Source of the DNA: Phoronis australis
Taxonomy: Eukaryota; Animalia; Phoronida
DNA length: 64,000 nt
Reading direction: 5' to 3'
Assembly: GCA_002633005.1 (NCBI GenBank)
Contig: NMRA01000056.1
Coordinates: forward strand, 786,137-850,136
Below the pieces are notes generated by a model that was not told where the DNA came from, ran no database searches, and was given only the letters and a program-made list of their open reading frames with translations. Position 1 is the first letter of the stretch. Every line of letters begins with the position of its first letter. The translations under genes and the position numbers were made by a program. Of the stretch, positions 4,847 through 45,521 are shown piece by piece.

Positions 4847-7800
4847 CTAAGAAGTTCTTCCAACACCTAAATCTCCAACACCAATCTTCATTTTCTTTTC
4901 ATGTGAGTCACTCTCACCATCTAAACCATCAACATCAAATGCCTGAAAGTGTACAAAAAGAAAGAAAAAGGTCATAACTACAGATTAATTAAACAGGAAT
5001 TCCAAAAGTGTACTAACGGATGATTTTAGACCCAATCAAAACTTTACATTTACTAAAAAAAAAACATTTTGTCAGAATTTGAATGCAGCAGCAATACTCA
5101 TTAATTTTATCAAAATGGAGGAAAAATCCTGTCATGCACTACACACAGTAATCAATAAAAATAACACTTTTAATAATTAAGTGAAATCTATCTAATTTGT
5201 ACAAAAATCATAACAATAACTGCACTTTTCTCATTTTTCAAGGTTTTCTTCCATTGTGACTGCCCTCAAAGTTTCAAAATAATCTCAGTTGGTACAGAAC
5301 AAGCCAAAAGAGTTCTATCTTAGTAACCCAGAATACCGTCACAACCACTGGCAGAGGCCAAATTCACAGTCAGAGCAGTCTTCCTATATGACCGAGAATG
5401 ATAACAGTGAAGTAAGCAAGATGGCTGAGCCTTTCGGCAATTAGAATTTTTCTGCCTTGATGGTTATTCTGAGTAATTTTTCCTGTTAACACAGTTAGTC
5501 ATAATGCTGGGAAATTGTATTTTGTTGTCTGATTACTTTTAGTATTTGTACTGTAGCTATGGTACAAAACTTGAATATAGCAAGGTAATATTTTGGTACT
5601 ATGGTATCGTAAAGAAAAAAAAGAAAATTTCACTTAGCTGCCATACCATGTTTTAAATTAGTAAGATTTAAGGACAAGTTAAAGTCCCACAGCACTAATT
5701 AGGTCAAGTTGAAGTAAAAAAATGGACTAAATAAACAGCCTGTTCCAAGAAATCTCACTTAGCTAAGATAAATCATAAATGTCAGACAATTTTACGATGA
5801 AACTAAAATCTATCTCCAGCCCATTCCAAGAAAGAGATCTTAAGTTTGACTTATTTTTTACTTAAGTTTTGCCTTAATTTTGACTAACTTACTGGACGTG
5901 GAAGTTTCAAAATTTGGAAGTTGAGACAAATCTTAGACTTAAGTAAAAATAAACTTAAGTCAATTTCTTGGAACGGAACCCTTAAGTTAGCAGCAATGAA
6001 TCTTCTCATTCAAACAATCAATGGATTCCATTTGGACCATGGAGAGCGTTAAGTCATCACATACCAAAATAAAGGGTTCCACCCAAAAAATGATAAAAAA
6101 TGGTTTACAAAGATTGCACTCTGTGTGGCTTTGAATAAAATAAAATTAAGGCATACATTAATGTAAATATTATATATAACTGGAGAAATGATTTCTAGGA
6201 GTTGACTGATCATCAGCGATAATGATAGAAATTCCACTTAAGTGAGGGCTGCACACTATGATGGCGGTGACTCCATTACAATTACAAAAGTTTTCAACAC
6301 TTTTTTTAGGTTTGATTTACTTACCCATAAACCACTGTCTGATGTTTGATTCTTTCCTTCAAAGAGAGTGCCAGACTTCTTGAAACTTTCTAACGCTGCA
6401 AAGACAATCTTGATAGTTAAAGAAAATTAATACAAAACATCAGACACAAAGATCTGGGATGTTTAAGCAGAGAGGACAACAAAGACCAAACATAACAAAT
6501 GACTAAGCATGGAGACGGTGGTTTTCAGTGGTTTGAGCCCCTGACTCCCGTTTGGGAGACACGGGTTCAAATCCTGGCTTTGCTGGTAGACAATCGAGCA
6601 TTGCACAAAGGTGTCTCCTACTCCTCTGAATGTATGCAAGGCAGTAAATGAGAACCTGGATATAATGGGAGTAAATGAGAACCTGGATATAATGCGAGTG
6701 AATGAGAACCTGGATATAATGCGAGTAAATGAGAACCTGGATATAATGCGAGTAAATGAGAACCTGGATATAATGCGAGTGAATGAGAACCTGAATATAA
6801 TGTCAGTGAATGAGAACTTGGATATAATGTGAGTGAATGAGAACCTGGATATAATGCGGGTGAATGAGAATCTGGATATAATGCGAGTGAATGAGAATCT
6901 GGACATAATGCGAGTGAATGAGAACCTGGATATAATGCGGGTGAATAAGAATCTGGATATAATGCGAGTGAATGAGAACCTGGATATAATGCGAGTGAAT
7001 GAGAACCTGGATATAATACGAGTTAATGAGAACCTGGATATAATGTGAGTGAATGAGAACCTGGATATAATGCGAGTGAATGAGAACCTGGATATAATGT
7101 GAAAGAGATTTCTGGGAGGGGATGTGGTCCACTGGAGTTCCTCGTCTCTAGACCTACATTCTGAATAGCAATTACTGTAAAGTTCTCATAACTTTCATTA
7201 TAACTAGTGTTTTTTTCAAAGCCACTCGTCATTGGTGTTTTAACCATAAAGAAGTGTTCTAAAATGAACTGAAAACAAAAAATCCACCTTTCACTGTCAA
7301 ACAATTCATGAAATAAAGGGGCAAACTTTCTACAGGAAACATAGGACTCAAAATTTCTATCATCAATCACAAGTAAAATAGGCAAGACCAGTTTGCTGGT
7401 ACTCGGCCAATTTCTTACAAACTTGTTTAAGCCATAAAAAAGGGAGAAAACACCCCCACAATATTTTCAATTATCACCTTGACGATGATAGTCAGCCTTT
7501 TTCTGCTCCAACAGCTGAAGCGATTGTAGACAATCGATGTACGTGGGTTTGCATGTGTAGTCGCCGCAAGGAACTGGGAACTTAGTGTTCTGTGGATGAC
7601 AAGATAATACGACTTAAAACCATTGTGGAGTACATGTATTAGACTAGCAATGACTGGGATCGTTAGAAAACACAGCGTTCTAGATCTGCATGGTCACTGC
7701 ATCCCAGCAGTTTTTGTGTTTATGCCATCTTGTAAATGTGACGTCAAAAGTGACATAAAATTCCACTAATTTCAAGTCAAATATCCCGGTATTTCTTCAC

Positions 7801-10800
7801 TTGTTTCGCCACAAAAATAACTTCGGCCATTTTTCTATTTTTCAAAGGTGATCACCTTTCTAGAATTGATTCATGAAAAACGTTATTTTACAATTCTACA
7901 CAGAAGAAATCACACTTACACCATAATCTTAATTTATGTCGAGAACTTTTTTGAATTTCCGCTTATAAACCATACAAGGTGCTAAATAGCTGAAGAGAAA
8001 CTGTAGCATTCTCGTGAAGAAGACAGCTCAGGATTAAATATTGTAGGTGGTCTAACTAAAATCTTTTTACCATTCTTTTGCTTATTTTTTAACACTCTTA
8101 TATTCAAAAATTTCTTGTTCTCACCTGACATGGTCCATCAAAATTACTGCTGACACAATGGCCCAGAATGGAGAAACCGTAGAGCACCCTTGAAGAAAAT
8201 TGTCGCAGTGATTATAAACGAACCATCTAATACTAGATTTGTAGAGACTGAGAAATGAAGTAATCTCAACAATAGCACATAAACACATGGAGGCAATACA
8301 CCACTGATAACCAATTACTTGATTGATACAACCGTACTATTGTATATACCAGTAGTCCTACATCAGTTCAGTGCAGAATTACACAATGCCAGAGGAATGA
8401 GGTCGTATTTTGAGAATGTATAGAGACTAATGTGATTCAACACGTAATTAAAGATGTATACCGAATGGCTAATCCCATAAGACACATGCACTAATAGACT
8501 AGTGTTAGGGCTCGGCAGAACCTGATAGTTCTTCACTGCCAGGTTCAGCGAGTTCACTTGACACACCTGGTCAATTTAATAAGGCGTGCCTGGTCTCAAG
8601 CAATAACGAACAATGCAGGTCGTCCCAAGCCCAAAAATCTATTTTAATCTGAGAAAAGAACCAAGTTAAGGGCAGTTTTAAAATGGCAAGTGGTAAAAAT
8701 AACGACTGAGGGCAAATTCACAGCAACTTAAAGGGGAATTTATAAAGGTATGAGGGCACACAGAAATTCATGACTAGAAATGTTGCCCCACCAATAAAGC
8801 TCAAGTCTTGATATCTCTCCTCACAACTTGAAAGCAAAAACTGTACTCGGCATTTCAAAACTTACTTCGCATCTGTATTACAGTGTCCAAAGTCATCTAC
8901 TGTCCTTTGATAGTTCATCAACATCGCCATTACCTAGGGACAAGAACACTGTCTTATTTTTCAGGCCAAATTCTAGTGAGAGCTGCTTCTATCGTTTTGA
9001 TTTAATTTTGATATCCTGCCAAAAAACCCCAAGTCATGAAATAAAGCAAGTTAACACGCCTTGTTCAATGGTAATACTGTGGTCGGAATGCAGCTCATAC
9101 AGAAGGTGCCACTTGGATTTTTCTTAAAAGCTTCATTTTTGTTTATCTTGATTTAAAAACGGGATGTTTTTTGACCTGCTGAAACCCTATTGCAAGAAAC
9201 TTTTACAGCGCTCAGCATAGTTTTAGAATGCACCTTGCTGTGTCTTGATGAAATGAGATAAGTGAGCACTCAAACTAGTATTAAAGCACTACACACACCT
9301 CAAACTGTCTTATCATGCTATTCTGCAGGAAGTGTAATTCACCGCACAGAAAATGTCAAAAGTAATTTTGAGTTCAACCTATACTAGAAAGATTAGACCT
9401 CCGGCTCTGAACTAGCTCGGAAGCCAAAAGCACTTTCGTTGAACTATGTCACACCCAAAGGACGAATTTCAATTTTCTCTACCCAGGGTAGAAACCAATT
9501 CTTACCATGAGAGTGTGTCCTTACCACTCACTGCAAATGCTCCTTACCACGCACATAGAACACCACCACAGGACCCAAACTCCCACCACACCCAGTCATC
9601 GTTACCAAAGACAATGTTTAGTACAAGAGTAAGAGTTTCTGGGTATGGTTGGAGTTCAGCTTACATGATGGAGATTTTCTGCATGGTAGGGGCACGCCCG
9701 CATGGAGCACGGGTAAGAAGCAACCCCATGTTTTTTGGAAAGATGACGATTTCATTTTTAAATAAAATTTATCACGCTCACATTGACCGGCTCGTATTAA
9801 TGCCAATTTTCCATAATAAATGGAAAAAATACATATCGTCTGTTCTTTGACTTATTGGAGGCATATCCCTATCTAAATAAAGGCGAGAATACTGTGGACT
9901 TCGACTTTACCATATATTATTCATACTGGTAGCCAAGTCTAGTCTTATTTTATTTTTTCCCATTACATAGGTGTCAGTCAATGGAATAATTCATCATTCT
10001 CTTCACACTACAGGATTTACAACCTTCTATGGATCTTTGCTGTAACATCAGCTGTGCGAGATAACCCAGCTTAAAATGTTGAATTAGAGGATGAAGACGT
10101 TGTAAAGGATGTAACAGTTTGTTCTTTATGCAATTTCAAACAAAAAACAAACACTACGTGAGATGAAAAACCTGACACCAAAGTCCACGTACGACTAGAA
10201 AACATTGCAAACTAAATTCAATGCTAAATAAACCTTGAACACAAAATAAATCTCAAATTGAAGAAGTGTGTGACAACAATTACGTGACGTGTGGTTACTG
10301 AAAATTTAATAAATAATTAAATAAATGCAAAAAAAAACTGCACCTGAAATGCGGCTTTGGCCATTTTGTTAAAGGTCATGTCCTTAGTGTCATAGTCTAT
10401 GTACCTGAGTTGCCCGGCAACGAAAACTGAAGCGAAATAGAAAACAGAGACGAGTCATGCAAGTAACATCATGCAAAATATGGAAATGAAAAATATTCAA
10501 GCACATGGGACACCAAAGCTTTTTCTTTACGAAACAAATTCCGACTATCTCTCACAGAATTCCTTCACAGTCCTCGTGACATTCTTGAGCACTACAGTGA
10601 AAAGTCCTTTCTCGATGTGAAGTTCTGTCTAGCGTCAAGGAGAATCTTTTTAAAGCTGAATAGTTGGGGCCCTCTTGTACAGCAGTGTTGCCACTAAAGT
10701 GTTCCCATCATTTGTTACAATCGAATAAAATACATTGTGAACAGTCTGTCCCCACACCACCTGCTGGCTACATCACATGACCTAACAAATGAAAGTATGA

Positions 10801-13800
10801 AAAGATTTCTTCCCCGACAGGGACTCAAAGCCAGGACCTTCCATTAAATGTGCAAATACCCCAGACTGCCGAGTCCTTGGGACCACCAGTCAAACACAGA
10901 AATCCAATCATATTGTTGGTGGCATCCCACCCTTGAACTCCTGAGTGTATATTAATGTGTAAACCTTAGGTCACCTCAAGTGGCCAACAGGTGGCGCAGC
11001 GACCAGACTTAAAATGCTTGCAATCTACATTTCCACTTCAGTTTAAGATTTACATATTATTCATATGCAAATAAAATAAAATAAAATACAGCCATTAGCA
11101 ACACAAGGCTGATGATGAACTTATCGAAACGTAAAAAGAACAAAAGCGCTGTGACAAAAATAAATCAAATATCAATCCTGCAGAGTTTGAACAGTTAATC
11201 CCCACTGCTAACAAACATAGTCTGTGTTGCAGCCTCTCGACAACAGACCCCCGCAGTTCAGTTGAAGACCTGAGAATACTTAGGCAAAGGTCAATATAAG
11301 ACCTCATGACTTGACCAAAAACTTGAGCTCTGCAAATCCAGAAGCACAAGTCGGAAAGAAATTTAAGTTTTAGGACATCTCATCATAAAGTACACAATAA
11401 AATTCGAAATTATTCTGATAATGCTATGAATTGAAATTCATAATTTTCTCTGGAGTATAAGCCTTTGTTTTAAGCCAATTATCTACAGTAAAACTAGGAA
11501 ATTATCTGAAACTAGCAAACCTGAGGAGTTTAACTTTCAACTTTTTACCAGCAATTAGAAACTTTAAGGTGCAAACAAAAGTGCCAATAACACATAAATG
11601 TTCAAGATGGAATCTCAAAAACGCTGTTACAGTTCAATTTCTAAATCACTGTTTCGTTCCCAAACGAAAACTTGTGGTTTGTTCTGGAATTTTGATTATC
11701 CTGAATGGATGAGCTCGCTACGTGGGATAGCTATAATGAAATTTGAGTATTTCTGTGAAAATTAAATTTTATGTCTTATTTTTTGATACCCTCATGCAAA
11801 AGTGAAACATCTGAAAAATTCATAAAAGCAATTTGGAGAACAGTGTATAACGCATATTATCTGAAAGTATCATACGAATATGATAAGCCATTTCTGAGAT
11901 ACAACGTTTCGAAGTTGACCAAATCTACACAACTTTAATTTTGCATATAAATAACCATCAACTTTACATAAGTTGCAGCGTTTCGCTTACATTTGAATCG
12001 CAGCGCCACATTTGCAATGAAGTGCCTAAGACCATCTATCTTAGCTACAACTAGGCATCCGACCTTTGACAACACAGGCCCGTGGTGCAGGCGCAAAAAT
12101 GATTTGAATCACATGCCCATCCTAGTGGTAACCAACCTATATTCCAGGGCGCCATGTCTTCGTAAAGTGGTAGTTTCAAGAAGTTGTCATACAACTGAGT
12201 TTTTATCTCATCCAGGAGTCCCATTCGCAGTAACGCGATTAGTGAGACAGCTGCAAAAGAAGGATATGTTGCGTAATATTCAATGCATTCTTGATAAAAC
12301 AATGATTTAAAGGTACTATTTTGGGTTCGTCTCAGTTAAAAGCTTCATAAAAGGAAATTGAGTGCAAGCCATTGAAATTTCCCAAACGAGGCCCTTTCAA
12401 CACAAGTTTTCAAACTGGCCATAATTAAACATTTTAAAATTTCCAAAATAATTTTTGAATTTCTGGTGGTGCACCCATAAAATGGCTGCCACAGACGGGT
12501 GAAGCACGTTGGGTAGCGAAATAGAATGAAGGGAGGGTAGGATCGAAAAGAAAGTGATTGGGTAACATGAAAGAGAAGAAAGGAATGGGTAGGGCAGAGG
12601 AAAGAGGAAGGGTGATTGAAGGAGAGTGGCGAAAGAGTACGATGGAGGGTGGGAGGTAGAGTGAAAGAAGGAAGGAGAGTGAGACAGAGATAGGGATGGA
12701 CGATTGACAGTGTCTCTGCACTACATTTATATATATTACACTGCATCATGTCAACATTTCTCTGGCAAGATTACAGTCCAGTTACAGGCAAATGCATGAA
12801 AACATTGATTTCATGTGTAGAAATATCTTAAAAAATTTACAAGATACTAACCTTGTATTCGACCGTAAGGTATCTTGAATCCATCTGTTTTTCGGATCAG
12901 GTAGACGTTGACACTTGTCTTATTGGTCGACAGACAGTGCATAGTGTATTTACGACTGTGACCGTCTAACTCATAGTCAAAGTGGTGGTTCACCTGCACA
13001 ATAAAAGTCAGTTCCAGCTGAATGAAGGAGATTAAGAGACTGATTAAAGCTCTCCTCAGGTAGGCACCAGGGGCCCGTTCCAAGAAAACTGACTTAGCTA
13101 TAACAAAATTAATCTTAAATTTCAGTCAATTTTAAATTTACCTCAAGTCCGTTTCAAGAAAGAGATCTTAAGTTTGACTTTAAGTTTTTGACTTAAGTTT
13201 TGTCTTAATTTTGACTAAATCGACGGATGTGGAAGTTTCAAAGTTTAGAAGTTGAGACAAATCTTCGACTTAAGTCAAAAATAAACTAAAGTCAGTTTCT
13301 TGGAATAGACACCGGAATTTCAGCATGGTATCAAACTATGGTTCAAAGGTCAACCTCAAGCAAATATTACCGTTAATAACGTTAAATTCAATGTCAACAA
13401 TAAACGATGAATTAAAACAATGCCATCATGCAGATTAGTCAATGATTGCATTACGACTTTTTAGTTTATTTGTTTTAAATTAATGGTCTCCAGTAATCTA
13501 AAACGTTGCTTTAACATTTGGCCAAATGCACAAAAAATCAGTTATTCCTTAATGGGGCAAAATAAATTAGTAATACAATATCATGTGATAGAAGGGCCCC
13601 ATGAGAATTCTTTAAAATTCCACAAGATTAACAAATCAGAAATGAGCAGCCCTGTAGTTCGATGCCTGTCACATGCTATGTCCCACAAAGGAGAAAAGAA
13701 CTGGCAGTGTGCAACTACACCTACCACTGTCGTTAAGTTTCTCACATCCACTCTCACTAAACTCCAGGATGACTCCATGTCACCACTAGATGGCGCTGAT

Positions 13801-37800: not shown

Positions 37801-40800
37801 AGATTTACCATTTTAGAAAAAATTTTTGTGCAAAACACACGAAGAATTTAATTATAACAGTAGTCCAAAATGGACGGCGCATAAACTAAGCTCATCCAAC
37901 ATGACTCACTGCACACAGTGTTGGAAACATAATTAACCTACAACTTAAAGGTTCAAGCACACAATAGAGACTCCACCTTGTCGCCAATGAGGCGTCCAGA
38001 CTTTTCACATCATAGATACCCCAAAAAACCTTAATTCATCAGCACAAGTTACATGGCAATACACAACTGCTCTGTTGATGCCATCACACCTAGTGTTTCT
38101 TTTCTGTGACTGATTATGCTAAGAGACCTGCAGTTTACTGGGGCCGTGGCAGTACAGTTTGACTTTCAAAAAGTTTTGTGCACTTACTAAAGTATACATT
38201 TTCTGAAACCATAAAGCTTTAATTTTGGGTGTCACTGGGTCACATGTCCTAAAATATATATGGCAAAAATTCTTTAGTTTGGGACAAAAATAATAATTTC
38301 TAAAATTGCCATGCTTCTATTCATTAGATACTTACCACATTCTCACAAATGCTCAAAATTTTACTAGATGTTGTTTGGTAATAGCTCCGTCTTACAAAAT
38401 AATGTCCCAAGCAAAGAAAATCTTCTTGAAAAGTTATTTTTGTTGAGAAATTTGTGTCTCAAACTAAAGATTTTTACCATATGTATTGGATGGCAAACCA
38501 ACGGACCATAAATAACAAACAAATTTCTTAAATACACATCCTCAAAAAGTATCAAAAATGTTAATAGTCACAACATGACACATTTTGGATGTTTTGCGTA
38601 ATCTTAAGGAATGATTTAAAAAGAATGCTTGTTCCAGTGAAAAAACATTCCCTCACCTGAGGGCTCTGAACTAATTTCAGGCATGTTTTAGATGGGAGAG
38701 GATGGCGGCCTTGCTGGACGGTGACTTTGACTAAACCACGAGCGGACCACGTCGCAAGACCAGTAACAATCTCTGTCAAGCACTTAAGTTTGCCAACGTC
38801 ACATGACCTTCTCACCAAGTGCAGTAGACTACTCCAGGAGTTGACAAAGAATAGCCGCTGCGAACGAAAAATCAATCAAGAGATTGCAAAGCAAACTTTC
38901 TTGCCCTTGCATAACCATCGTATTCTAATAACGATCAAGACTAGTTACCTAATAACAAATTAACACTAATACTAATGACACAAGACCACTGCGTTAATCT
39001 GAAGAGAGGTATCCAGTTGATGCTGTAATGAGACTAACTAGGTCAGTAATAAGCCCGCAAATATTAGTCAACGGCACTAGTCTGATATAACGTGCCTGTA
39101 TTTTGAGAACCCGTTTGATGCCCGTTATTCAGTGGAGAAATCTGGTTCTCAAAATTGAGGCACGTTATATCAGACCATTACCTTAGTCAACAGCGTCAAA
39201 AGAGAAACAATGAGAAGGCTTAACTGACAGATAACTTGCTGCAAACGCAGACTGCCAGACTTTAAAACCAACCTGTTTTTGATCTTGCGTGCGAATATTG
39301 GACACGTAAGTAACTTGACTGGAGGATATGAACTGAGCAACGACTTTCTCAAACTCATGTGGAAGTAAATTACCAGTCATGGATGTTAGGTTACTGAGAA
39401 ACACAGTCCCAAAAAGAACCTGCAAGTAGAATGGAAGTCAAAAGTCAAAAATGGAAATTGAACAAGTTTATGCTCATGAAGCGTTCCCATGATTCATTCC
39501 ACAGCATTGTGCATGTTTCCTGGTACTATCTAAATACAATTCAACGAGACACCTGGCTACAGACAATTAGACAAAATGATGCCACAAAACAAGACAGCCA
39601 TGCAAAGAATATAGGTCATTCAAATGACTCTGTGAATGGTCTCATGGAAACCATCAGAATCAATTGAAAACTGCATTAGGCTTATGTTGGTATACTGGGA
39701 CTAGCAAGTAAACCGTAGCACAAGGACCATTATATGAAAACAGTCTTTTTACCATTGACATCTCATTACATTAAGATTTGACATAGAAAATCAAATTACT
39801 AATGTTGGAACCAAAACTCCAAGCAACCTAACAAGTTCCAAGCCTTGAAACACTAAATAACAATGAGGCTGGATTGTACAAAAGATTGTCACTGAAAAGN
39901 TTTTGTATTCACCTCATGCTTGGCTACCTAGCCCAGCCGCTACAGTACGGGGCAAAAGTATTCAGACAAAATGACCTGCAATTTCCTGTCACAACAGCTG
40001 GACGGAAGCCAAGTTCATTGTCAGAGTAGTCTCCCCTGATGACCAAAAATTCAGGGGAATTAACAAGAAAATTTCACCAGGTCACCAAGCCATTCTGTAA
40101 TTAGGAATGTGTTGACATAATACTAAATACCAGTCATTTTTGCTGTAAGGTGGCTAAGCCATTCTGCAATTAGATTTTTGTCCACGTAATAGTAATTGTA
40201 ATAATAAACCATTCCTGTTGTTAACGGAATTATCTACCATGACAGGGAAACAGTGCTATGTGTGATTACTTTTGTCTGGTACTGTACATGGCCTATTGAT
40301 TACTTTTGTCTTGTACTGTATGTCTCACTTCATACCTGGTAATCAGCATACAAACTGTCAGCCACATCCTGCACACGCCCAGACTGTACATGGCCGATGT
40401 AAATGTTGTGAACACCATTGTGTTTTGTGTAGTCTATCACCTGAGATAAAGTGGAATCTGAAACAAAAAGGAATGACGCAAATTTCAATTCAAATCCTCC
40501 AAATCCTTTATGATCACAGAATCGAATCATGCATACGGCAATAGCGCCTGGATGTAAATAATCACACGGCTGCTTTTAATCTAAAATCACGAACATTCAT
40601 AGAAACCAATATGACATCCACAGACAAGGACATTTTTGCAAGCGTACAATAGAATCCCATTTCTGTGATCTTTTGGCTAAAACATTTCTCAGATTTTCTG
40701 ACAAGGCCTTTCAGCCCAAGAACTCTACTGTCAAAAACAAGTTCCAAAACATTTCACCAAACATTGAAATTATAGTAGTTGCAACATCCAGTCACTTAAC

Positions 40801-43800
40801 ACAACTAACAATGAATGAATCTTCCATCTTTCAAAAATCCTTAACCTCAGTCTTCCACCAGTTCTACGGTAAGTAAATAGCGCCCAGTGTTTAAACAAAT
40901 CGCTATAATGTACTTGCATGTAAGGACAAGAGCCACCAATGTCGTGTTTTTCACTACTTCTAAGTAAATAGGGGTCAGTGTCTAAACAAATCGCTACAGT
41001 GTACTTGCTTGTAGTGACAAGTGCCACCGTTGTCTTGTCTTTGTGCACGTCAGCCACTGCGATAACTGTGGCTCCAGTTCCCACCTCAACGAAGCTGCCA
41101 TCATGCAAATTGCGGTCAATATACGAGTAGAAAGAGAGCTGCTGGAGCACTCCATCGTTATCGAAATCTAAAATAACGTAGTAGTAGTATTAGTCGCAGT
41201 AGCAGTACATTTTCCTTTGACTCAAATTACACAAAAAACGAACCCAAATGATGTGAGGTCCTGTAAAGGCCATTTACATGCCATCTACTCCTTTTGAGAG
41301 GCAAACCAAATGAAAACAAAAAATACGATAGAGGCAATATAAAGTATGAGATTAATAAAGTGACAAGCAAGTTGTTCTTAAATAAGTGTATTTGGCAAAG
41401 AGATCTGAAACAAACCACTGGCCAGTGCTCAGTTGGTATGTTGACATAGTTTTAGAGAATAACACTACACAAGGTGGGTTATAAGTGACCACCAAGTCAC
41501 CCTTTAAAAGATTGGCTAGTGTATGATTTGTCGAAACAGCATTACTTTGCAGATTTTACTATTTAAGGGCCAGCACACAAACAGAACAGCAAATAGCTCA
41601 AGTATGCAGTAAACTGAATGAGCATTTTGCCCTCTTTTACCTGGCCAGTGTCACTCCTCACAGCAGGCAGGTAAGTTGAGGTAAGCGGTCAGAAGATTAT
41701 TGTTGATAGCCAATGAAAACTATTTCATCACTCCACACATGTCCTTCTGGCTCGCTCATTGTAACCAAGAGTATAAAATTTCCGCTGATGACAATGAATG
41801 TAACTGAGCATTTTGCCTTCCTGTGCAGGTAACAATGACCTGAGGTTCATCTGAGTTGAGTCAGAAAACTGAACGTGCAGCTTTCTGTCAGTGAAGGCCC
41901 TTAATAAAATACCTAATGCAACACAAATTAATTAGACCAATCCCCTATTCCTTACTTAAACAGTCCAACAAATCCATGGCATACAAATAAAGTTATTTCA
42001 CAGCTCACTTACCTGGCTTCTTTAAACATGTAATTGCATGCTCCTAACAATGCTAAAAGTATAGCAGGAACTAAACCACAAAGCTATTTTAGCATAATCT
42101 ATGCTAAACAACGTGCAGTTGTATTCCTTGACAATTTGTAAATATGAAAACAAAAAATTCTGTAAATAGCCGACCTGTGCACCAATGACGAACCTCGCAG
42201 GTTCACACACTCCACATCATGCAGTGTTATTCCCCAGCACCACGTCAGGATACTTACTGGACATGAGTCATTCATTTGTGGAGGATCATTTTCGCCACAA
42301 AATTCGTTCTTAAAAACACTTGGCAATTTTTAACTTGCTTCATATTCTCATCTTCACTATATGTTGTGTTCCCAAACAATTTGGCCAAGCAGTCACATGG
42401 ATAAGGAATTAGCCTGCAAGTTCCACTTTAAACAGAATTTACTCGATAACAAGAGCAACACAAAGCACTGAAAGGCACACACAACTGCACTGCAAGTGGT
42501 GTGCTTTTAGAAATGTTTATTAGAATCAGGCAATAATGTAAAATAAAAAGGATACTAGGGGCTTAGCGTAAGATAAATCCATCTGAAACAAGGCACAATT
42601 ACTGGCGTCTCCCTGTAAGAAACTAATTAGTTGAAATTCTATGAATATCCAACAAGGAATTTGGTAAACATGGAGTCTAAAGCCATGGTTCTGGCCAATG
42701 CATGTTTTCCAAAAAACAAAAAATGGAATGGGCCAGGTATGATGACAATTATGAGAACCGAATAAGGATTGACGTGGATGGTATCCATTAGTTCTTTGAA
42801 ATTACTTGAACAGTAATCAAGTCCAGACATCTGGCTTCTACTGTTTTACCCACATCCAGAAGTTCCGCCATTTTAAAAGCTTTTCCGTGCTCAAACAGTA
42901 ATTTTTTCTTCAAATACAGGTACTTGGTACCCATGGAAATTGGAAAAATCCGACTGATAATGACATCTTGTATCCTAAATTTCTGGAACCTAGATGTCAA
43001 GAACATTTGGAACCTAGTTTATGTGGGCATATATACTAACATGACGGCATACAAACCATTCTGAAAAGCTGTTCCATCTTTCAATGTGGAGGAGAGTATA
43101 TCCAATGGACTACTTTCTATTAGCTGTTCTTTAAGTTTATCCTGAAATGAATACAATTCGAGCCAGTAGTCAGTTATTCGAAATTACTCTGATGCTTAGG
43201 TGGGGCAAAAATGGTCAACTTTAAAGTACGATGAAATAAAAATGAAGCACTTGGTAAATTAAGCCAAAAAAACACCACCAGGCCTTTTTCCAGGATTTCG
43301 AAAATAGGGGGTCCAAAATGGGGTTCCCAATATTCCAGGGCGTCCATGATTCCGATGCGTAACCCCCACTCCCAGGACCATTCACCAGCAATCCCCCCAA
43401 CGCAGTTTTTTACAAAAAAAATGCGTAAACCAAAGTTTTTACATCTAAGTTTACAAAACAGAGTTCTGTAGAGAGCTTCTTTACTAAAAAACTGTGTAGA
43501 CCAAGACTTTTACATCTAAATTTCAGAAAACAGCCAAGTAGCTTACCAAACAAATATTAGAGATATTGGTTTAACGATGACTGCACTATGTTTTTGGTGA
43601 TTTCAAGTNTTCCAGGGCGTCCATGATTCCGATGCGTAACCCCCACTCCCAGGACCATTCACCAGCAATCCCCCCAACGCACAGTTTTTTACAAAAAAAA
43701 TGCGTAAACCAAAGTTTTTACATCTAAGTTTACAAAACAGAGTTCTGTAGAGAGCTTCTTTACTAAAAAACTGTGTAGACCAAGACTTTTACATCTAAAT

Positions 43801-45521
43801 TTCAGAAAACAGCCAAGTAGCTTACCAAACAAATATTAGAGATATTGGTTTAACGATGACTGCACTATGTTTTTGGTGATTTCAAGTCAAATTGATGTTA
43901 TAAAGTTTGTCGTATCATTTTAATTAGCTTTAATATTCTGTAAAATGAGGCATCAGAGCTGCCAAGAAAAGTACACAGGGTTAAACTTTTTTGTGACTGT
44001 CGCCAAATTAAATCAAAATATTGCACACACGCACGCACACACCAATAATCTTAAATGGTACCAGTCAATGAAAAGATGCCCAATCCCCTTATCAAATGCG
44101 AAACAATGAAAATAACCTTATTCAACAACAAAAGTGAAATATCACTAACTGATCTTATCTAATAATCTCAAAATTCACCAGAAAATCATTTAGCAGTTGT
44201 TTACAGTATGAATGAACCAAACAAAAATAGTAGTGAAATAAAATTGTCCCATGAAAAGGCCTTCCCAAGTTGAAATCGCAAACTCCAAACTGACACAAAT
44301 AAATCAAAATACAGTAGTGGCGGAGAATTTTTCTGTTGAAGCTATCAGTGAACACTGTTTGGTCCATGGTCTGAATAGAAACATCAATTGGCCTTATTAA
44401 AAAACAAAATAAACAAAGGCTCGCATGCTAAAACATGAGCCAAAACAGACTTTCAAAGAAGACATTGCATGGGGCTTCAGTTCACCATAATTGAGAATGC
44501 AAACAGGCCACATTTTTCCACCAGCTCTAAAGATACCACCATACTTCATGAATACTAGATGTAGTGTTGTGAAACGTGACTTCTGGTTGTGACGACACGT
44601 ACAGCCAGATAAAACCTCTCTAAGTTGCTTGCCAAGCGGCAACTGCCTTTTGGCCGAATGGTTTAGATGCTTGGCAATTGCTCGTGCAACCTAGCTTCAA
44701 GTCTCGGAGTCACTGAACTGTTCTACAGTTATGAACCTGTGCTCCACCTAAGAAGCCAAGCTATGATTTAGTACAGACACCTATAAAATTCGTTTAAATT
44801 TGTTCCTCATTCAGGGGAGAATTTCTTAGGGCCTTGCACCCTCTGAGAATGGAAATCAACCCCCCCATGGCCAACACCAAACCTATTTCTAACAGGTATC
44901 CAAACTTAACATTTAGTCTTTGTTTCAAAGCCTAGCCTTCACTTGAACGAAGGACTCATGTGAATGCTTTTCAATACTGATCTCCTTAGAGCTTGTAGAG
45001 TGTGAACTAATCTGTTTTCTGTTTTGCAGTTTGAGTCTGAAAACACAGTTAATAAAGCCATTTGATAGTCTAAATCGCTAAAATGAAACTGGTCTTGAAT
45101 CAAGTTGAATGACATTAAAACTAAAATTCTTTGTTAAGTGACTGGTTGCCGAGTTCTAAGTAATTTCCTCAATAACTGACAGAAATGCTACTCAAACTAC
45201 CTTATCCAGGGCACCACTTATAATTTTAGTGTCAAAATTAGTTCGCTCTTTATCCTGAAGAAGGGCGTGATGAAGGTAAAATTGTTTCACTGTCAGCGAC
45301 TGCGAAGACATGTCATCTGCCACAGCACCAAAATTGTCATATGTTTCATGATATCTTTCTTCAGACCCAAATTCACTAAGTCTGTAACTCGCTTTGTCAT
45401 TGTTCTCTTTTTCCAAACCTTCTGTATCAAGTAGAGCCTTATTCAGGCTCACACAAATTGTCAGAATTATTAGAAATATCTTTAATCTGACACATTTCCG
45501 CGAACTTATGAAAGCAGCCAT
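4847..45521 (-). CDS. Uncharacterised ~1885-aa secretory-pathway protein with three methyltransferase-like/kinase-like modules, an Asn-rich repeat insert and a Cys-rich C-terminus (32 exons)
   Basis: Phase-consistent exon chain with no internal stop: 45521-45201, 43141-43057, 41167-41009, 40457-40336, 39419-39273, 38857-38657, 37440-37317, 36002-35881, 31978-31847, 30338-28605, 27606-27537, 26299-26235, 25538-25400, 24844-24736, 23589-23481, 22691-22518, 20439-20311, 19480-19320, 18717-18485, 16744-16541, 16088-15982, 14988-14920, 14061-13993, 13847-13725, 12993-12852, 12250-12137, 10426-10344, 8933-8866, 8188-8125, 7589-7478, 6395-6325, 4942-4847 (TAG); 5658 nt in total. All introns are GT-AG except intron 3 (GC-AG proposed). 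Hydrophobic N-terminus KIFLIILTICVSL. Motifs FVEVGTG, YEDMAPWNIVF, YIDYD. Small additional phase-0 exons cannot be excluded. Confidence 0.82.
5740..5982. mobile_element. MITE family A, copy 1
   Basis: Inverted ends GTTCCAAGAAA / TTTCTTGGAAC; clearly similar over about 240 bp to 13070-13313. Confidence 0.75.
6511..6670 (+). mobile_element. tRNA-derived SINE head leading into the minisatellite
   Basis: A-box-like GGTGGTTTTCAGTGG and B-box GGTTCAAATCC (6564-6574) at tRNA-like spacing, followed by non-tRNA body sequence. Confidence 0.6.
6644..7102 (+). repeat. 27-bp minisatellite, about 17 copies (GTGAATGAGAACCTGGATATAATGCGA)
   Basis: Directly visible head-to-tail array with few substitutions; it generates the repetitive ORFs at 6463-7132. 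Confidence 0.97.
7478..12993 (-). other. C-terminal protein-kinase-like catalytic region plus six-Cys segment (exons 25-30 of the large gene)
   Basis: Spliced translation VNHHFDYELDGHSRKYTMH...LPLYEDMAPWNIVFVAGQLRYIDYDTKD...VMAMLMNYQRTVDDFGHC...HCVSSNFDGPCQNTKFPVPCGDYTCKPTYIDCLQSL. DxxxxN followed about 10 residues later by hydrophobic-hydrophobic-D-aromatic-D matches the catalytic-loop and DFG-equivalent spacing of atypical kinases. Confidence 0.6.
12520..12700 (+). repeat. GA-rich purine low-complexity tract
   Basis: Strong A/G bias in intron 25 of the large gene. Confidence 0.7.
13070..13313. mobile_element. MITE family A, copy 2 (PIF/Harbinger-like GGGCCCGTT terminus)
   Basis: GGGGCCCGTTCCAAGAAAACTGACTT ... 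AAGTCAGTTTCTTGGAA; shares the internal GAGATCTTAAGTTTGACTT...GGAAGTTTCAAA...GAGACAAATCTT with copy 1. Confidence 0.75.
15012..15170 (+). repeat. 22-bp minisatellite (ATCATCACAGGGCTTGGAATGA), 3 perfect plus about 4 decaying copies
   Basis: Directly visible; lies just upstream of the acceptor of exon 14988-14920. Confidence 0.92.
17040..17460 (+). mobile_element. Decayed 3' end of a non-LTR retrotransposon (LINE ORF2 C-terminal Cys/His region)
   Basis: Frameshifted peptide RLRCSAHALMIEKVRHLKLNRSERLCPLC / EYHF...PFYDDLKKQYLP resembles the RxSxHxLxIExGR..R.C..C..E.HF...Y post-RT motif of CR1/L2-group LINEs; ends near AATAAA at 17439. Confidence 0.7.
17681..18189. mobile_element. Non-autonomous DNA transposon with TIR AGGTTATGTAGGACCTTA
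   Basis: Inverted copy TAAGGTCCTATACAACCT at 18172-18189; matching single ends near 47678-47697 and 50972-50988. Confidence 0.65.
21637..21739. mobile_element. ~100-bp foldback element, family C, diverged copy
   Basis: AATAGTCACTTACA...TTTTGAGAACCAGTT / AACTGGTTCTCAAAA...TGTGAGTGGCTATT hairpin; the core is shared with 39078 and 62448. Confidence 0.7.
22275..22325 (+). repeat. 17-bp tandem repeat x3 (GACATCCTCCATATTTR)
   Basis: Directly visible. Confidence 0.8.
24864..24970 (+). repeat. Dispersed repeat, copy 1 (matches 30571-30670)
   Basis: CAGAGCAGGTGAGAAA.ATGG...GAATTCA...TATAAAC.AACC...AATCTTG..ACTTGAAAT is present at both sites. Confidence 0.65.
28605..30338 (-). CDS. 1734-nt exon 10 of the large gene: low-complexity region with NNMAD-type repeats
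   Basis: Matches the 596-aa ORF 28515..30305. Acceptor ttcgtag before 30338 and donor gtaaga after 28605, both phase 0, fit the flanking exons. Confidence 0.88.
28960..29320 (-). repeat. Coding 15-bp (sometimes 12-bp) tandem repeat encoding NN(M/V)A(D/V/T)
   Basis: The plus strand reads repeated GTTGTTGTCAGCCAT variants; roughly 25 units, all in frame. Confidence 0.93.
30571..30670 (+). repeat. Dispersed repeat, copy 2 (matches 24864-24970)
   Basis: Same shared blocks in the same order as copy 1. Confidence 0.65.
30870..30935 (-). mobile_element. tRNA-derived SINE fragment
   Basis: Minus strand TCAGTGGTAAGAGCAC...GGTTCGATTCCC (A/B-box remnants); 5' truncated, no closable acceptor stem. Confidence 0.55.
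36069..36247. mobile_element. MITE family E, copy 1
   Basis: TIR AATTGACCTATCGC / GCGATAGGTCAATT; the interior matches the reverse complement of 63461-63644. Confidence 0.78.
36529..36955. mobile_element. MITE with ~55-bp terminal inverted repeats
   Basis: GTTGCATGAAACAGTCCCAAATAGGGACTCA is perfectly inverted as TGAGTCCCTATTTGGGACTGTTTCATGCAAC; AT-rich interior. Confidence 0.85.
39078..39177. mobile_element. ~100-bp foldback element, family C
   Basis: GTCTGATATAACGTGCC..ATTTTGAGAACC / GGTTCTCAAAAT..GGCACGTTATATCAGAC. Confidence 0.8.
39941..40115 (+). mobile_element. Dispersed repeat family F with TA|CAGT terminus (Tc1/mariner-like), one of four copies
   Basis: TACAGTAC...AGTATTCAGACA.AATGACC...GTAGTCTCCCCTGATGAC; related copies at about 57925-58090 (+), 62953-63080 (+) and 53540-53690 (-). 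Confidence 0.6.
42446..42512. repeat. Dispersed repeat fragment (inverted match to 55163-55225)
   Basis: AGAGCAAC.CA.AGC..TGAAA.GCAC...TGCACTGCAA.TGGTGTGCTTTTAG occurs as the reverse complement in an HM13 intron. Confidence 0.6.
43333..43887 (+). repeat. ~277-bp direct duplication on either side of an N (likely assembly artefact)
   Basis: 43333-43608 and 43610-43887 look identical apart from a 2-bp indel (aacgcag vs aacgcacag) and are separated by n at 43609. Confidence 0.9.

Follow-up and report, generated by a model that had tools for sequence, protein, structure and literature searches.

Gene structure, expression and predicted location

On the minus strand of Phoronis australis contig NMRA01000056.1, a single gene runs from an ATG at position 45521 to a stop codon at 4847 of the window, the stretch of 64,000 nucleotides that was analysed as a whole and to which all positions refer. 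The spliced chain of 32 exons comprises 5658 nt and encodes 1885 amino acids, with one terminal stop and no internal stops; 30 introns are of the GT-AG type and intron 3 is GC-AG. The exon number and approximate length given in a preliminary description of this DNA were recovered identically. The motif blocks quoted there are likewise present in the spliced model, 13 of the 18 pieces as single-frame strings, with the remaining five spanning exon junctions or having been typed differently. An overview of the features is given in Table 1.

Table 1. Features of the gene within the window; paired positions separated by a slash are splice junctions seen in RNA reads, and domain folds are predicted.
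Feature	Position	Strand	Content	Support
Exon 1	45201..45521	-	start codon, hydrophobic N-terminal segment, stem onset	open frame of 107 aa
Exon 2	43057..43141	-	stem, aa 108-135	AG/GT and frame fit
Exons 3-6	38657..41167	-	module 1, methyltransferase-fold domain, aa ~146-325	profile match; 41009/40457, 40336/39419, 39273/38857, 38657/37440
Exons 7-8	35881..37440	-	module 1, kinase-like remnant, aa ~346-430	RNA junctions, profile match
Exons 9-12	26235..31978	-	low-complexity linker of ~680 aa between modules 1 and 2; acidic stretch in exon 12	single open frame; 31847/30338, 27537/26299
Exon 10	30338-28605	-	1734 nt of the linker
Repeat in exon 10	28976-29317	-	15-nt coding repeat
Exons 13-17	20311..25538	-	module 2, methyltransferase-fold domain, aa ~1111-1312	homologue model, motif columns; 23481/22691, 22518/20439
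Exons 18-19	18485..19480	-	module 2, pseudokinase-like domain; exon 19 also module 3 motif I
Exons 20-24	13725..16744	-	module 3, methyltransferase-fold domain, aa ~1429-1636	every junction in RNA
Exons 25-27	10344..12993	-	module 3, minimal kinase-like domain, aa ~1637-1745	every junction in RNA
His/Arg loop	12987-12946	-	H1639, H1640, D1646, G1647, H1648, R1650, Y1652
R1670	12894-12892	-	end of the likely β3 strand
Catalytic loop	12158-12141	-	D1715-x4-N1720
Downstream Asp	10397-10389	-	D1732 and D1734
Exons 28-30	7478..8933	-	helix and six-cysteine C-terminal domain	Cys conservation; 10344/8933
Exons 31-32	4847..6395	-	C-terminal tail and stop codon	frame, splice sites; weakly conserved

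Raw-read runs bearing the Phoronis australis label, which were mapped over two stretches spanning 26 of the 31 introns, contain at least 19 of the 31 junctions (at least 19 of 26 within the stretches mapped), one GC-AG junction among them, so the gene is expressed. Over the exons, first mates map to the plus strand, consistent with a minus-strand RNA. Introns 2, 10, 12, 13, 14, 17 and 18 are absent among the junctions listed, although they lie inside the mapped stretches, and introns 1 and 28 to 31, which lie outside them, are supported by frame and splice sites. A division into several separate genes was rejected, since module 2 ends and module 3 begins within exon 19, reads splice exon 9 onto exon 10 with its open frame, and modules 1, 2 and 3 occur in one chain in 38 of 63 long homologues; the junction 18485/16744, found in 22+7 reads, links module 2 to module 3. 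A pseudogene was also rejected, as the in-frame stop after exon 5 is intronic and reads splice at 39273.

A hydrophobic segment at residues ~10-29, which has the best 15-mer hydropathy of the whole protein (2.43 at residue 10) and is the sole 19-mer region above 1.6, with no second membrane segment, is predicted to be a signal peptide or a type II anchor. A crude test for a hydrophobic N-terminus was passed by 39 of 77 long homologues, many gene models being truncated. The protein contains ten N-x-S/T sites, and six C-terminal cysteines (C1767, C1783, C1792, C1801, C1806 and C1813), each conserved in 93-100% of the aligned homologues, are likely to form three disulfides. The secretory signal proposed earlier is consistent with these three features, and the protein is likely to be luminal (Golgi or ER) or secreted.

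Three modules with unequal conservation of their motifs

The same ordered blocks had been reported to recur three times, and profile comparison found this recurrence to be significant for all module pairs. In single-sequence comparison, the repeat is visible between modules 2 and 3 only (Z 12.4; phmmer E 4e-12), with Z scores of 2.9 for modules 1 and 3 and -0.25 for modules 1 and 2. Homologue profiles gave E values of 1e-13, 5e-12 and 3e-30 for the three pairs, with probabilities of 98.1, 97.5 and 99.8 as opposed to 0.09-0.16 for reversed profiles, and scores of 89-216 as opposed to at most 20 in column shuffles (20 per pair). The methyltransferase half and the kinase half of the module each match separately, the kinase half of module 1 with E values of 1.3e-6 and 7.9e-8. 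On the basis of these profiles, the three modules of the 1885-residue protein are homologous. The linker between modules 1 and 2 varies in length from 133 to 680 aa in 10 homologues.

Each module is predicted to consist of a class I methyltransferase fold, the type defined by a seven-stranded Rossmann-like architecture whose β6-β7 hairpin is reversed, and a reduced kinase-like domain. The folds were predicted on the homologues P0009 and P0032 and not on the Phoronis australis protein, module 3 being assigned by structure match, module 2 by secondary structure and profile, and module 1 by profile. In the VIA structure comparison, the methyltransferase domain of module 3 of P0009 matched SgvM (Z 13.8, rmsd 3.8, 186 aligned) and residues 23-222 of WbdD (Z 13.6, rmsd 4.1, 186 aligned), and the best 50 rows were all methyltransferase-type or without a name, which upholds the class I fold claimed previously. 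Foldseek returned at least 500 matches at E <=0.001 for the P0009 model, in which module 2 has a seven-strand Rossmann-type secondary structure. A BFVD search found mainly methyltransferases, NCBIfam and PHROGs gave weak methyltransferase matches alone (best E 8e-4 and 0.05), and the ESM Atlas offered phage or bacterial methyltransferase clusters at 0.85-0.89 as leads for module 3.

The (D/E)xGxG motif, which had been described for all three modules, is complete in module 1, where it reads E-x-G-x-G in a domain that also carries the family-wide LLP(H/F)ExE motif, but not in the other two: in the Phoronis australis protein, module 2 lacks the acidic residue of motif I and module 3 keeps it without either glycine. 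The motif II acid at the end of β2 is absent from all three modules of this protein. In the named animal proteins, the GxG of module 3 is kept in 1 of 16 and its motif II acid is missing in 14 of 16, whereas the non-animal or unnamed homologues have kept GxG in 52/90 and the acid in 63/90. Motif I of module 1, in 14 aligned and mostly animal sequences, retains its acid in 13 and its glycines in 14 and 11, respectively, but is lost in many protist copies. With motifs I and II lost from module 3, methyl transfer by the Phoronis australis protein is doubtful, and module 1 is the sole remaining candidate for it.

The D-x4-N motif with a DFG-like Asp, also ascribed to three modules, was found in module 3 alone, where D1715-x4-N1720 is followed by D1732 and D1734; a metal-binding-type Asp 12-14 residues beyond the Asn is present in neither module 1 nor module 2. 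All module 3 kinase residues listed in Table 1 are conserved at 92-100% in the homologues, namely the His/Arg loop, R1670 (98%) and D1732/D1734 at 92-99% and the catalytic loop motif in 180 of 186, the conservation of D1715 and N1720 being partly built in because the alignment rows were picked by that motif. In hand-cut module 3 sequences, D1715, N1720 and D1732/D1734 are invariant (17/17). Of 94 long homologues, near-identical cluster members counted, 80 have the His/Arg loop and the catalytic loop in a single copy each. The kinase remnant of module 1 has no catalytic Asp, and its catalytic positions are unconserved in 14 sequences; module 2 has a pseudokinase-like loop, D-M-C-P, without the Asn and without the DFG-type Asp, and across 15 sequences it keeps the Asp in 14 and the Asn in 3. 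Judged by these residues, kinase copies 1 and 2 look dead. Three equivalent active enzymes were rejected, since the kinase catalytic set is found in module 3 alone.

The kinase-like domain comprises about 110 residues and has no αC; in the model there is no helix between strands 28-34 and 40-43, and the β3 lysine and the αC glutamate are missing. The assignment of the strand ending at R1670 as β3 is inferred from secondary structure. With the isolated domain, 47 of the best 50 VIA rows were kinase-like, some of them presumably so from the complex named and the rest by title, while 3 were undecidable by title and none was an identifiable non-kinase. The scores of these rows, Z 3.7-5.7 and up to 6.0 in a repeat run, lie below the Z of ~8 that the tool treats as clear. 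The matches span both lobes, model residues 1-111, with none beyond ~111, and include ULK4 11-149 (Z 5.7, rmsd 4.1, 96 aligned) and WbdD 227-377 (Z 4.6, rmsd 3.4, 96 aligned). Foldseek gave no match for this domain at E <=0.001 (best E 0.85), its best rows including chemokines and ribosomal proteins, and sequence profiles found no kinase among the PDB sequences. Structures of Fam20, POMK and VLK were not among the best 50 VIA rows, an absence that does not exclude likeness. For the kinase part, the ESM Atlas leads are bacterial clusters at 0.90 and Kdo/WaaP and APH/RIO1 clusters at 0.81-0.82. The kinase-like fold suggested in the preliminary description agrees with the structural rows, but at low Z, without αC and with the catalytic set only in module 3.

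Family distribution and relation to known enzymes

The family comprises 649 clusters from animals, choanoflagellates, Capsaspora, an apusozoan, stramenopiles and Perkinsus; with exon 26 as query, 54 of 70 candidate homologues were confirmed at E <=0.001, and with exon 19 none of 63. The gene is that of an animal, as stated earlier, but the family is not animal-specific, being widespread in eukaryotes. Named members are invertebrates and protists, echinoderms (sea urchins) included, and no vertebrate, arthropod or nematode name was found among the family matches, which would explain why the family has been overlooked and also limits its medical relevance. Searches of viral and prokaryotic genome contigs (13 pattern matches each) and of 50,697 phage records confirmed no relative; as these searches require close motifs, distant prokaryotic relatives may have escaped them. 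A recent transfer from bacteria or viruses was rejected, since the sequences of named animals fall into one clade that is nested within those of choanoflagellates, Capsaspora and an apusozoan in a midpoint-rooted FastTree tree of 114 of 181 rows (rows with >=30% gaps dropped), calculated without a clade test.

No scanned homologue reached the Pfam cut-off, and 10 single exons gave sub-threshold noise alone. Neither a kinase-type or Fam20-type Pfam family nor a profile match to Fam20, four-jointed, FAM69, FAM198, POMK or VLK was found in 13 full proteins (E <=0.5) or 73 alignment members (E <=0.05). In the main texts of a mostly open-access literature, no paper on the family was found under 12 homologue gene identifiers or under WbdD combined with Capsaspora, kinase and methyltransferase, in keeping with the earlier remark that no named gene of this architecture was recognised.

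WbdD of E. coli O9a (PDB 4AZS, 4AX8, 4AZW; PMC3482155) likewise has a methyltransferase directly followed by a kinase-fold domain, and the resemblance noted earlier was confirmed in that WbdD matches both domains separately and in the same order. Each of its domains superposes on the homologue models (kinase Z 4.6-4.8, rmsd 3.4-3.5, 95-96 aligned), and it ranks second in Foldseek with 399 columns over both domains. Its catalytic loop, described as D350-D351...W355-N356 followed by D369 (PMC3482155), shares the pattern acid-D-x3-W-N and then an Asp. However, numerous other methyltransferases and kinases score within 1 Z unit of WbdD, the profiles A1 and A3 found no WbdD chain among the PDB sequences at E <=10, and the two domains are oriented differently towards each other (Foldseek rmsd 19 over the pair). 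At its methyl site, WbdD carries a phosphate-binding H132/H133/R203 cluster. It has one bacterial unit in a cytoplasmic-membrane setting, with a kinase of ~250 residues that includes a C-helix, and a C-terminal coiled coil, whereas the Phoronis protein is the product of a eukaryotic gene and combines three units, a kinase core of ~110 residues without αC, eroded SAM motifs, a hydrophobic N-terminal signal or anchor, and a C-terminus that consists of the six-cysteine domain as a cap and a short tail instead of a coiled coil.

The Lcin_0519 family of Legionella and other proteobacteria is described with a methyltransferase at 88-193, a kinase at 304-543, no αC, and an N-lobe sheet that runs on into the methyltransferase sheet (PMC9758233). 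In the homologue model, a 16-residue strand at 515-530 and a helix-free N-lobe suggest the same sheet continuity; this likeness is drawn from the published description of Lcin_0519, itself predicted, and not from sequences or coordinates. In that description, Lcin_0519 differs in being bacterial, with a single unit, a coiled coil and no predicted signal peptide (PMC9758233). The bacterial methyltransferase-kinase fusions described in these two sources have glycans as their established or predicted substrates (PMC3482155; PMC9758233). Among eukaryotes, Fam20A/B/C, four-jointed, POMK and VLK share a signal or anchor, luminal disulfides and atypical active-site motifs, include active kinases alongside pseudokinases (Fam20A being an activator of Fam20C), and phosphorylate sugars in some cases (Fam20B, POMK); in the part of the review drawn on here, methyltransferase domains or tandem kinase copies are not mentioned for them (PMC7948968).

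Proposed function and alternatives

Our best reading, by analogy, is that the protein works like WbdD on glycans, yet belongs to neither WbdD nor Fam20. That it is an active kinase-fold enzyme is probable, and a glycan acceptor, given such activity, is reasonably likely. We see an even chance that it is, in full, a luminal or secreted enzyme in which module 3 is a minimal kinase that would phosphorylate a glycan sugar with ATP as the donor, with the first two kinase-like copies likely serving as inactive scaffolds. In the model, the last methyltransferase strand would continue into the reduced N-lobe, which lacks αC, and the catalytic half of a C-lobe would come next. The His/Asp/Gly/Arg loop would replace the Gly-rich loop and grip the phosphates, R1670 would stand in for the β3 lysine, D1715 may act as the catalytic base, and N1720 and D1732 (or D1734) may bind metal, while the six cysteines could make up a disulfide-bonded cap close to the acceptor site. 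Like WbdD, the ancestral unit probably added a phosphate to its acceptor first and a methyl group afterwards. Echinoderm N-glycans carry phosphate on terminal Glc or GlcNAc (PMC7616688), and since echinoderms also have the gene, this was counted in favour of a glycan acceptor.

The foremost alternative, an unlikely one, is a secretory protein kinase in which module 3, like Fam20C, four-jointed and VLK, would phosphorylate Ser/Thr/Tyr residues in proteins of the lumen or the extracellular space, with the other domains selecting substrates. The secretory topology and the intact catalytic set agree with it, secretory kinases comprise both protein and sugar kinases (PMC7948968), and protein kinases make up most of the best 50 structural rows, although this share says little, as the PDB is rich in them. 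However, a small cysteine-rich domain replaces the peptide-binding lower C-lobe, where the structural matches end, and the methyltransferase fusion fits small-molecule or glycan chemistry better.

Somewhat more unlikely is fully bifunctional, WbdD-like capping even in animals, in which module 3 would add the phosphate, and module 1 (in this animal) or module 3 (in protists and sponges) would then put a methyl group on it. It would explain why motif I is kept in module 1 and why the SAM motifs persist in module 3 of many non-animal or unnamed homologues, and in the secretory pathway of nematodes, methylation of glycans is supported by a candidate SAM transporter (PMC6422873). It is weakened by the near-complete loss of these motifs from module 3 of named animal proteins, by the missing motif II acid in module 1 of Phoronis and by the protist copies without motif I; moreover, in Dictyostelium, from which methylphosphate glycans are reported, the phosphate stems from GlcNAc-1-phosphotransferase, and no Dictyostelium member was found among the named family matches.

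Less likely again is a kinase fold with another chemistry, whether transfer of nucleotidyl, phosphocholine or aminoalkylphosphonate groups or hydrolysis of ATP; the invariant histidines would then hold a metal or an atypical donor. Three near-invariant His and an Arg do replace the Gly-rich loop and Lys, αC is missing, transfer of groups other than phosphate by kinase folds is documented (PMC7948968), and molluscan glycans carry methylaminoethylphosphonate (PMC7616688). Yet the spacing of D-x4-N and the downstream Asp is that of an ordinary phosphotransfer set, and Arg for Lys as well as αC loss are likewise described for predicted kinase-methyltransferases of bacteria (PMC9758233). A matrix or lectin-like protein without catalytic activity, in which all six domains are relics that bind glycans or partners and a long flexible spacer joins them, would suit the degenerate copies (two of three kinase-like and at least two methyltransferase copies), the 680-aa low-complexity linker and the unusually small kinase core, but is highly improbable because the residues kept at 92-100% in opisthokonts, stramenopiles and alveolates alike are polar and fall on catalytic positions in a single module, as would be expected if they formed an active site.

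To our knowledge, few kinases act inside the secretory pathway, and each new family of them has opened a field. If the reading as a secretory kinase is true, the gene represents a new and old family (opisthokonts, an apusozoan, stramenopiles and an alveolate) that is unnamed in Pfam, with an architecture otherwise known from bacterial glycan-capping enzymes. It would be a concrete candidate for the source of the phosphate that invertebrate glycans carry, and would offer structural biology a very small kinase fold, one aspartate as a clean mutational test, and active and dead enzyme copies within one chain. Going further, we tentatively consider that it may be the first eukaryotic counterpart of WbdD, from an ancient secretory family in which glycans are capped first with phosphate and then with methyl-phosphate, the labour having been split between modules after triplication. 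In that case, its kinase fold of about 110 residues without αC would be among the smallest known, and the kinase would stay in module 3 while SAM use shifts from module 3 in protists and sponges to module 1 in most other animals. Such a WbdD counterpart would supply the missing enzymes for glycans that bear phosphate and methyl groups in protists and marine invertebrates.

Gene structure and transcription

The minus-strand gene in the genome of the animal Phoronis australis is real and expressed; it belongs to an old eukaryotic family of uncharacterised proteins. Splicing reproduced the 32 exons and 1885 aa of the preliminary description, with 5658 nt and a single, terminal stop codon; 30 introns have GT-AG borders and intron 3 has GC-AG. 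Raw RNA reads from three runs labelled as the same species, together with contigs of a fourth, were mapped to positions 8850-28849, and two of the runs to 29330-43320. The joints listed correspond to introns 11, 15, 16 and 19-27 in the first stretch (at least 12 of its 18 introns) and to introns 3-9 in the second (7 of 8). For the whole gene, at least 19 of the 31 junctions were seen in RNA, while 7 junctions within the stretches are absent among the joints listed and 5 lie outside them. The intron 8 joint differs in two letters and has the length of the model. First mates map to the plus strand over the exons, as expected if the RNA is derived from the minus strand. Modules 2 and 3 belong to one transcript, since exon 19 spans both and the 18485/16744 joint is covered by 22+7 reads. 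The connection between modules 1 and 2 is partly shown by reads and otherwise based on the open frame and homologues.

Further features are included in the table. In the 122-bp exon 8, the reads differ from the window at five letters, four of them in every read, indicating that the RNA came from other individuals and that this degenerate part of module 1 is variable. Head to head with this gene lies one for a signal peptide peptidase, two exons of which match Pfam PF04258 (E 1.6e-10 and 1e-8); its probable start codon is about 210 bp from the ATG of the present gene, a spacing suggesting a common promoter. The open frame at 61306-61626, which ends in an RG-rich tail, is presumably LSm4-like; Pfam gave no match to this piece at E <=0.01.

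Features of the gene and its surroundings (window positions)
Feature	Position	Strand	Remarks
Exons 1-8	45521-45201, 43141-43057, 41167-41009, 40457-40336, 39419-39273, 38857-38657, 37440-37317, 36002-35881	minus	
Exons 9-16	31978-31847, 30338-28605, 27606-27537, 26299-26235, 25538-25400, 24844-24736, 23589-23481, 22691-22518	minus	
Exons 17-24	20439-20311, 19480-19320, 18717-18485, 16744-16541, 16088-15982, 14988-14920, 14061-13993, 13847-13725	minus	
Exons 25-32	12993-12852, 12250-12137, 10426-10344, 8933-8866, 8188-8125, 7589-7478, 6395-6325, 4942-4847	minus	
Intron 3	40458-41008	minus	RNA support 7+8 reads
Tandem duplication	40870-41042		91 bp, 82% alike; 3' end of exon 3 copied into intron 3
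Tandem duplication, intron 1	43333-43887		279 bp, 99% alike, flanking an N at 43609; likely assembly artefact
Coding repeat, exon 10	28976-29317		15-nt unit, 23 copies
Minisatellite, intron 30	6643-7099		27-bp unit, 17 copies, 93% alike
Short intronic repeats	13066-13305, 21660-21715		Many reads, both strands, loose ends; probably dispersed mobile elements
Signal peptide peptidase gene	45731-56800	plus	
Open frame	61306-61626	minus	

Threefold repeat and predicted folds

As single sequences, modules 2 and 3 resemble each other clearly (Z 12.4 vs 1000 shuffles; phmmer E 4e-12) and module 1 is barely detectable against the others (Z 2.9 and -0.25). Profiles built from 14, 15 and 17 sequences for modules 1, 2 and 3 matched in every pairing: 1-2 with 98.1% (E 1.2e-13), 1-3 with 97.5% (E 5.2e-12) and 2-3 with 99.8% (E 2.8e-30). 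Reversed profiles gave 0.09-0.16%; when columns were shuffled, 20 times for each pair, scores reached at most 20 vs 89-216 for the real profiles. In profile comparison the two halves of the module also match pairwise when taken separately, the methyltransferase half with E 4e-9, 3e-8 and 5e-22 and the kinase half with E 1e-6, 8e-8 and 4e-14. Modules 1 and 2 are separated by a low-complexity linker of 133-680 aa in the 10 sequences checked. The exon 10 repeat encodes an Asn/Asp/Met/Ala/Val-rich pentapeptide run, and the linker holding it differs greatly in length among species.

Two homologues were folded as stand-ins for the spliced protein. P0009, comprising modules 2 and 3 (43% identity over aa 1129-1856; pLDDT 83, pTM 0.77), was modelled with two α/β domains of seven strands; a small β-sheet and a helix-loop-hairpin unit come after each of them. 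At E <=0.001, Foldseek matched the model to at least 500 structures, and those listed are methyltransferases; WbdD, the bacterial methyltransferase-kinase that caps O-antigen, took ranks 2, 4, 5 and 8 with about 400 columns aligned, the rmsd of 19 implying differently oriented domains. In VIA, the methyltransferase domain matched SgvM (Z 13.8, rmsd 3.8) and WbdD 23-222 (Z 13.6, rmsd 4.1), each with 186 aligned residues, in a tie with many other methyltransferases.

P0032, the C-terminal part alone (55% identity over aa 1637-1821; pLDDT 84), gave no Foldseek match at E <=0.001. Among the top 50 rows of a wide VIA search, all over model residues 1-111 with Z 3.7-5.7, 47 were kinase-like by title or by the identity of the named complex and 3 undecidable; WbdD 227-377 reached Z 4.6, and a second search Z up to 6.0. 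These scores fall under the tool's "clear" level; support for the kinase assignment therefore comes from the uniform hits and the motif register. CDK2 11-150 aligns with model residues 1-102, and its DFG aspartate, which we take to be D145, falls on the DxD of the model. No helix occupies the place of αC; the structural matches stop short of the lower C-lobe, in whose place a helix and a six-cysteine domain are predicted. The predicted architecture is that of a methyltransferase-kinase fusion.

Residue conservation and relation to known enzymes

Of 186 homologues, 180 carry the catalytic-loop motif and were picked by it, so D1715 and N1720 are fixed by selection. In these 180, the module 3 residues H1639, H1640, D1646, G1647, H1648, R1650, Y1652, R1670, R1692, D1732, D1734 and six cysteines are conserved at 92-100%. 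Of 94 long proteins, 80 contain the His/Arg loop once and the catalytic loop once. In module 2 the Asp is retained in 14/15 sequences and the Asn in 3/15, with an inconsistent DFG-type Asp, and module 1 has lost all kinase catalytic residues.

The methyltransferase motifs are unevenly retained. GxG and the motif II acid of module 3 are found in 52/90 and 63/90 non-animal or unnamed homologues and in 1/16 and 2/16 named animals, both being absent from the P. australis protein. Module 1 retains E-x-G-x-G here and in most animals, and lacks the motif II acid in P. australis. Many protist copies have lost the E-x-G-x-G of module 1, in a tally whose search pattern picked up 27 of the 75 long proteins. 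Pfam methyltransferase matches are weak (best E 1e-4, 9/73 members, all under the cut-off).

The acid-D-x3-W-N catalytic loop of module 3 matches D350, D351, W355 and N356 of WbdD, in which D351 is described as essential and Mg as bound by N356 and D369 (PMC3482155). Although the design is like that of WbdD, the protein does not belong to the WbdD family: a sequence match is absent, it has three units and no coiled coil, and it would occupy another compartment. Nor did the profile place it among Fam20-type kinases.

Family history and proposed function

Of 70 candidates for the exon 26 query, 54 proteins were confirmed as hits, and no precomputed Pfam domain is recorded for any of them. The module 3 profile matched 649 clusters at E <=0.001 and 232 at 1e-30 in 1.84 billion representatives, with 150 clusters among the matches listed. 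Named animal members come from sponges (Sycon, Corticium), Owenia, Lingula, Ptychodera, molluscs (Haliotis, Patella, Aplysia, Gigantopelta, Liolophura, cephalopods) and echinoderms (Strongylocentrotus, Lytechinus, Diadema, Amphiura). Non-animal members are Capsaspora CAOG_05503, Salpingoeca rosetta, S. infusionum, Thecamonas, Cafeteria, a chrysophyte and Perkinsus, and one short record is labelled Symbiodinium. Vertebrate, arthropod, nematode, plant and fungal names are absent among the named hits, most hits carrying no species name. All named records are "uncharacterized" or "hypothetical", except for one metagenomic cluster, which automatic annotation calls TrmB. In the largely open-access main texts searched, neither 12 homologue identifiers nor the domain combination retrieved a paper on the family.

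Among 63 proteins of at least 1100 aa, the module order is 1-2-3 in 38, 1 and 3 in 16, only 3 in 5, 2-3 in 3 and another order in 1, the hits in protists being weak. In the module 3 tree, built from 114 of 181 rows, this protein belongs to an animal clade that lies within holozoan and apusozoan sequences, a position compatible with vertical descent. From the module orders and this tree, we infer that the triplication predates animals. Possible single-module prokaryotic relatives appear in the ESM Atlas: unnamed bacterial clusters of 168-224 aa are similar to the kinase part (score 0.90), and phage clusters of 308-317 aa with methyltransferase domains (0.87-0.89) are about as long as a single module. 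No relatives were found in phage records by tblastn.

The sole membrane-length hydrophobic segment (aa 10-29), ten N-x-S/T sites and the conserved cysteines suggest a protein of the secretory pathway. Most likely, the protein would enter this pathway, and module 3 would hold ATP-metal between the His/Arg loop and D1715, N1720 and D1732 and then phosphorylate a glycan hydroxyl, the glycan resting on the cysteine-rich cap. A glycan is a candidate acceptor by analogy with WbdD, reported to phosphorylate and methylate terminal mannose (PMC3482155), and with Lcin_0519 of Legionella, described as a predicted methyltransferase-kinase that lacks αC, has an N-lobe sheet running into the methyltransferase and is encoded next to O-antigen export genes (PMC9758233). 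N-glycans of a sea cucumber and a brittle star are reported to carry terminal phospho-Glc and phospho-GlcNAc (PMC7616688). Dictyostelium methylphosphate lends no support to this reading, because its phosphate is described as coming from a different source (PMC6994554, PMC11795075). Glycan methylation in C. elegans is reported to need a candidate SAM transporter, the methyltransferases being unidentified at the time of that account (PMC6422873). The proposed role of modules 1 and 2 is to bind substrate or partners or to control module 3, much as the pseudokinase Fam20A is reported to regulate Fam20C (PMC7948968).
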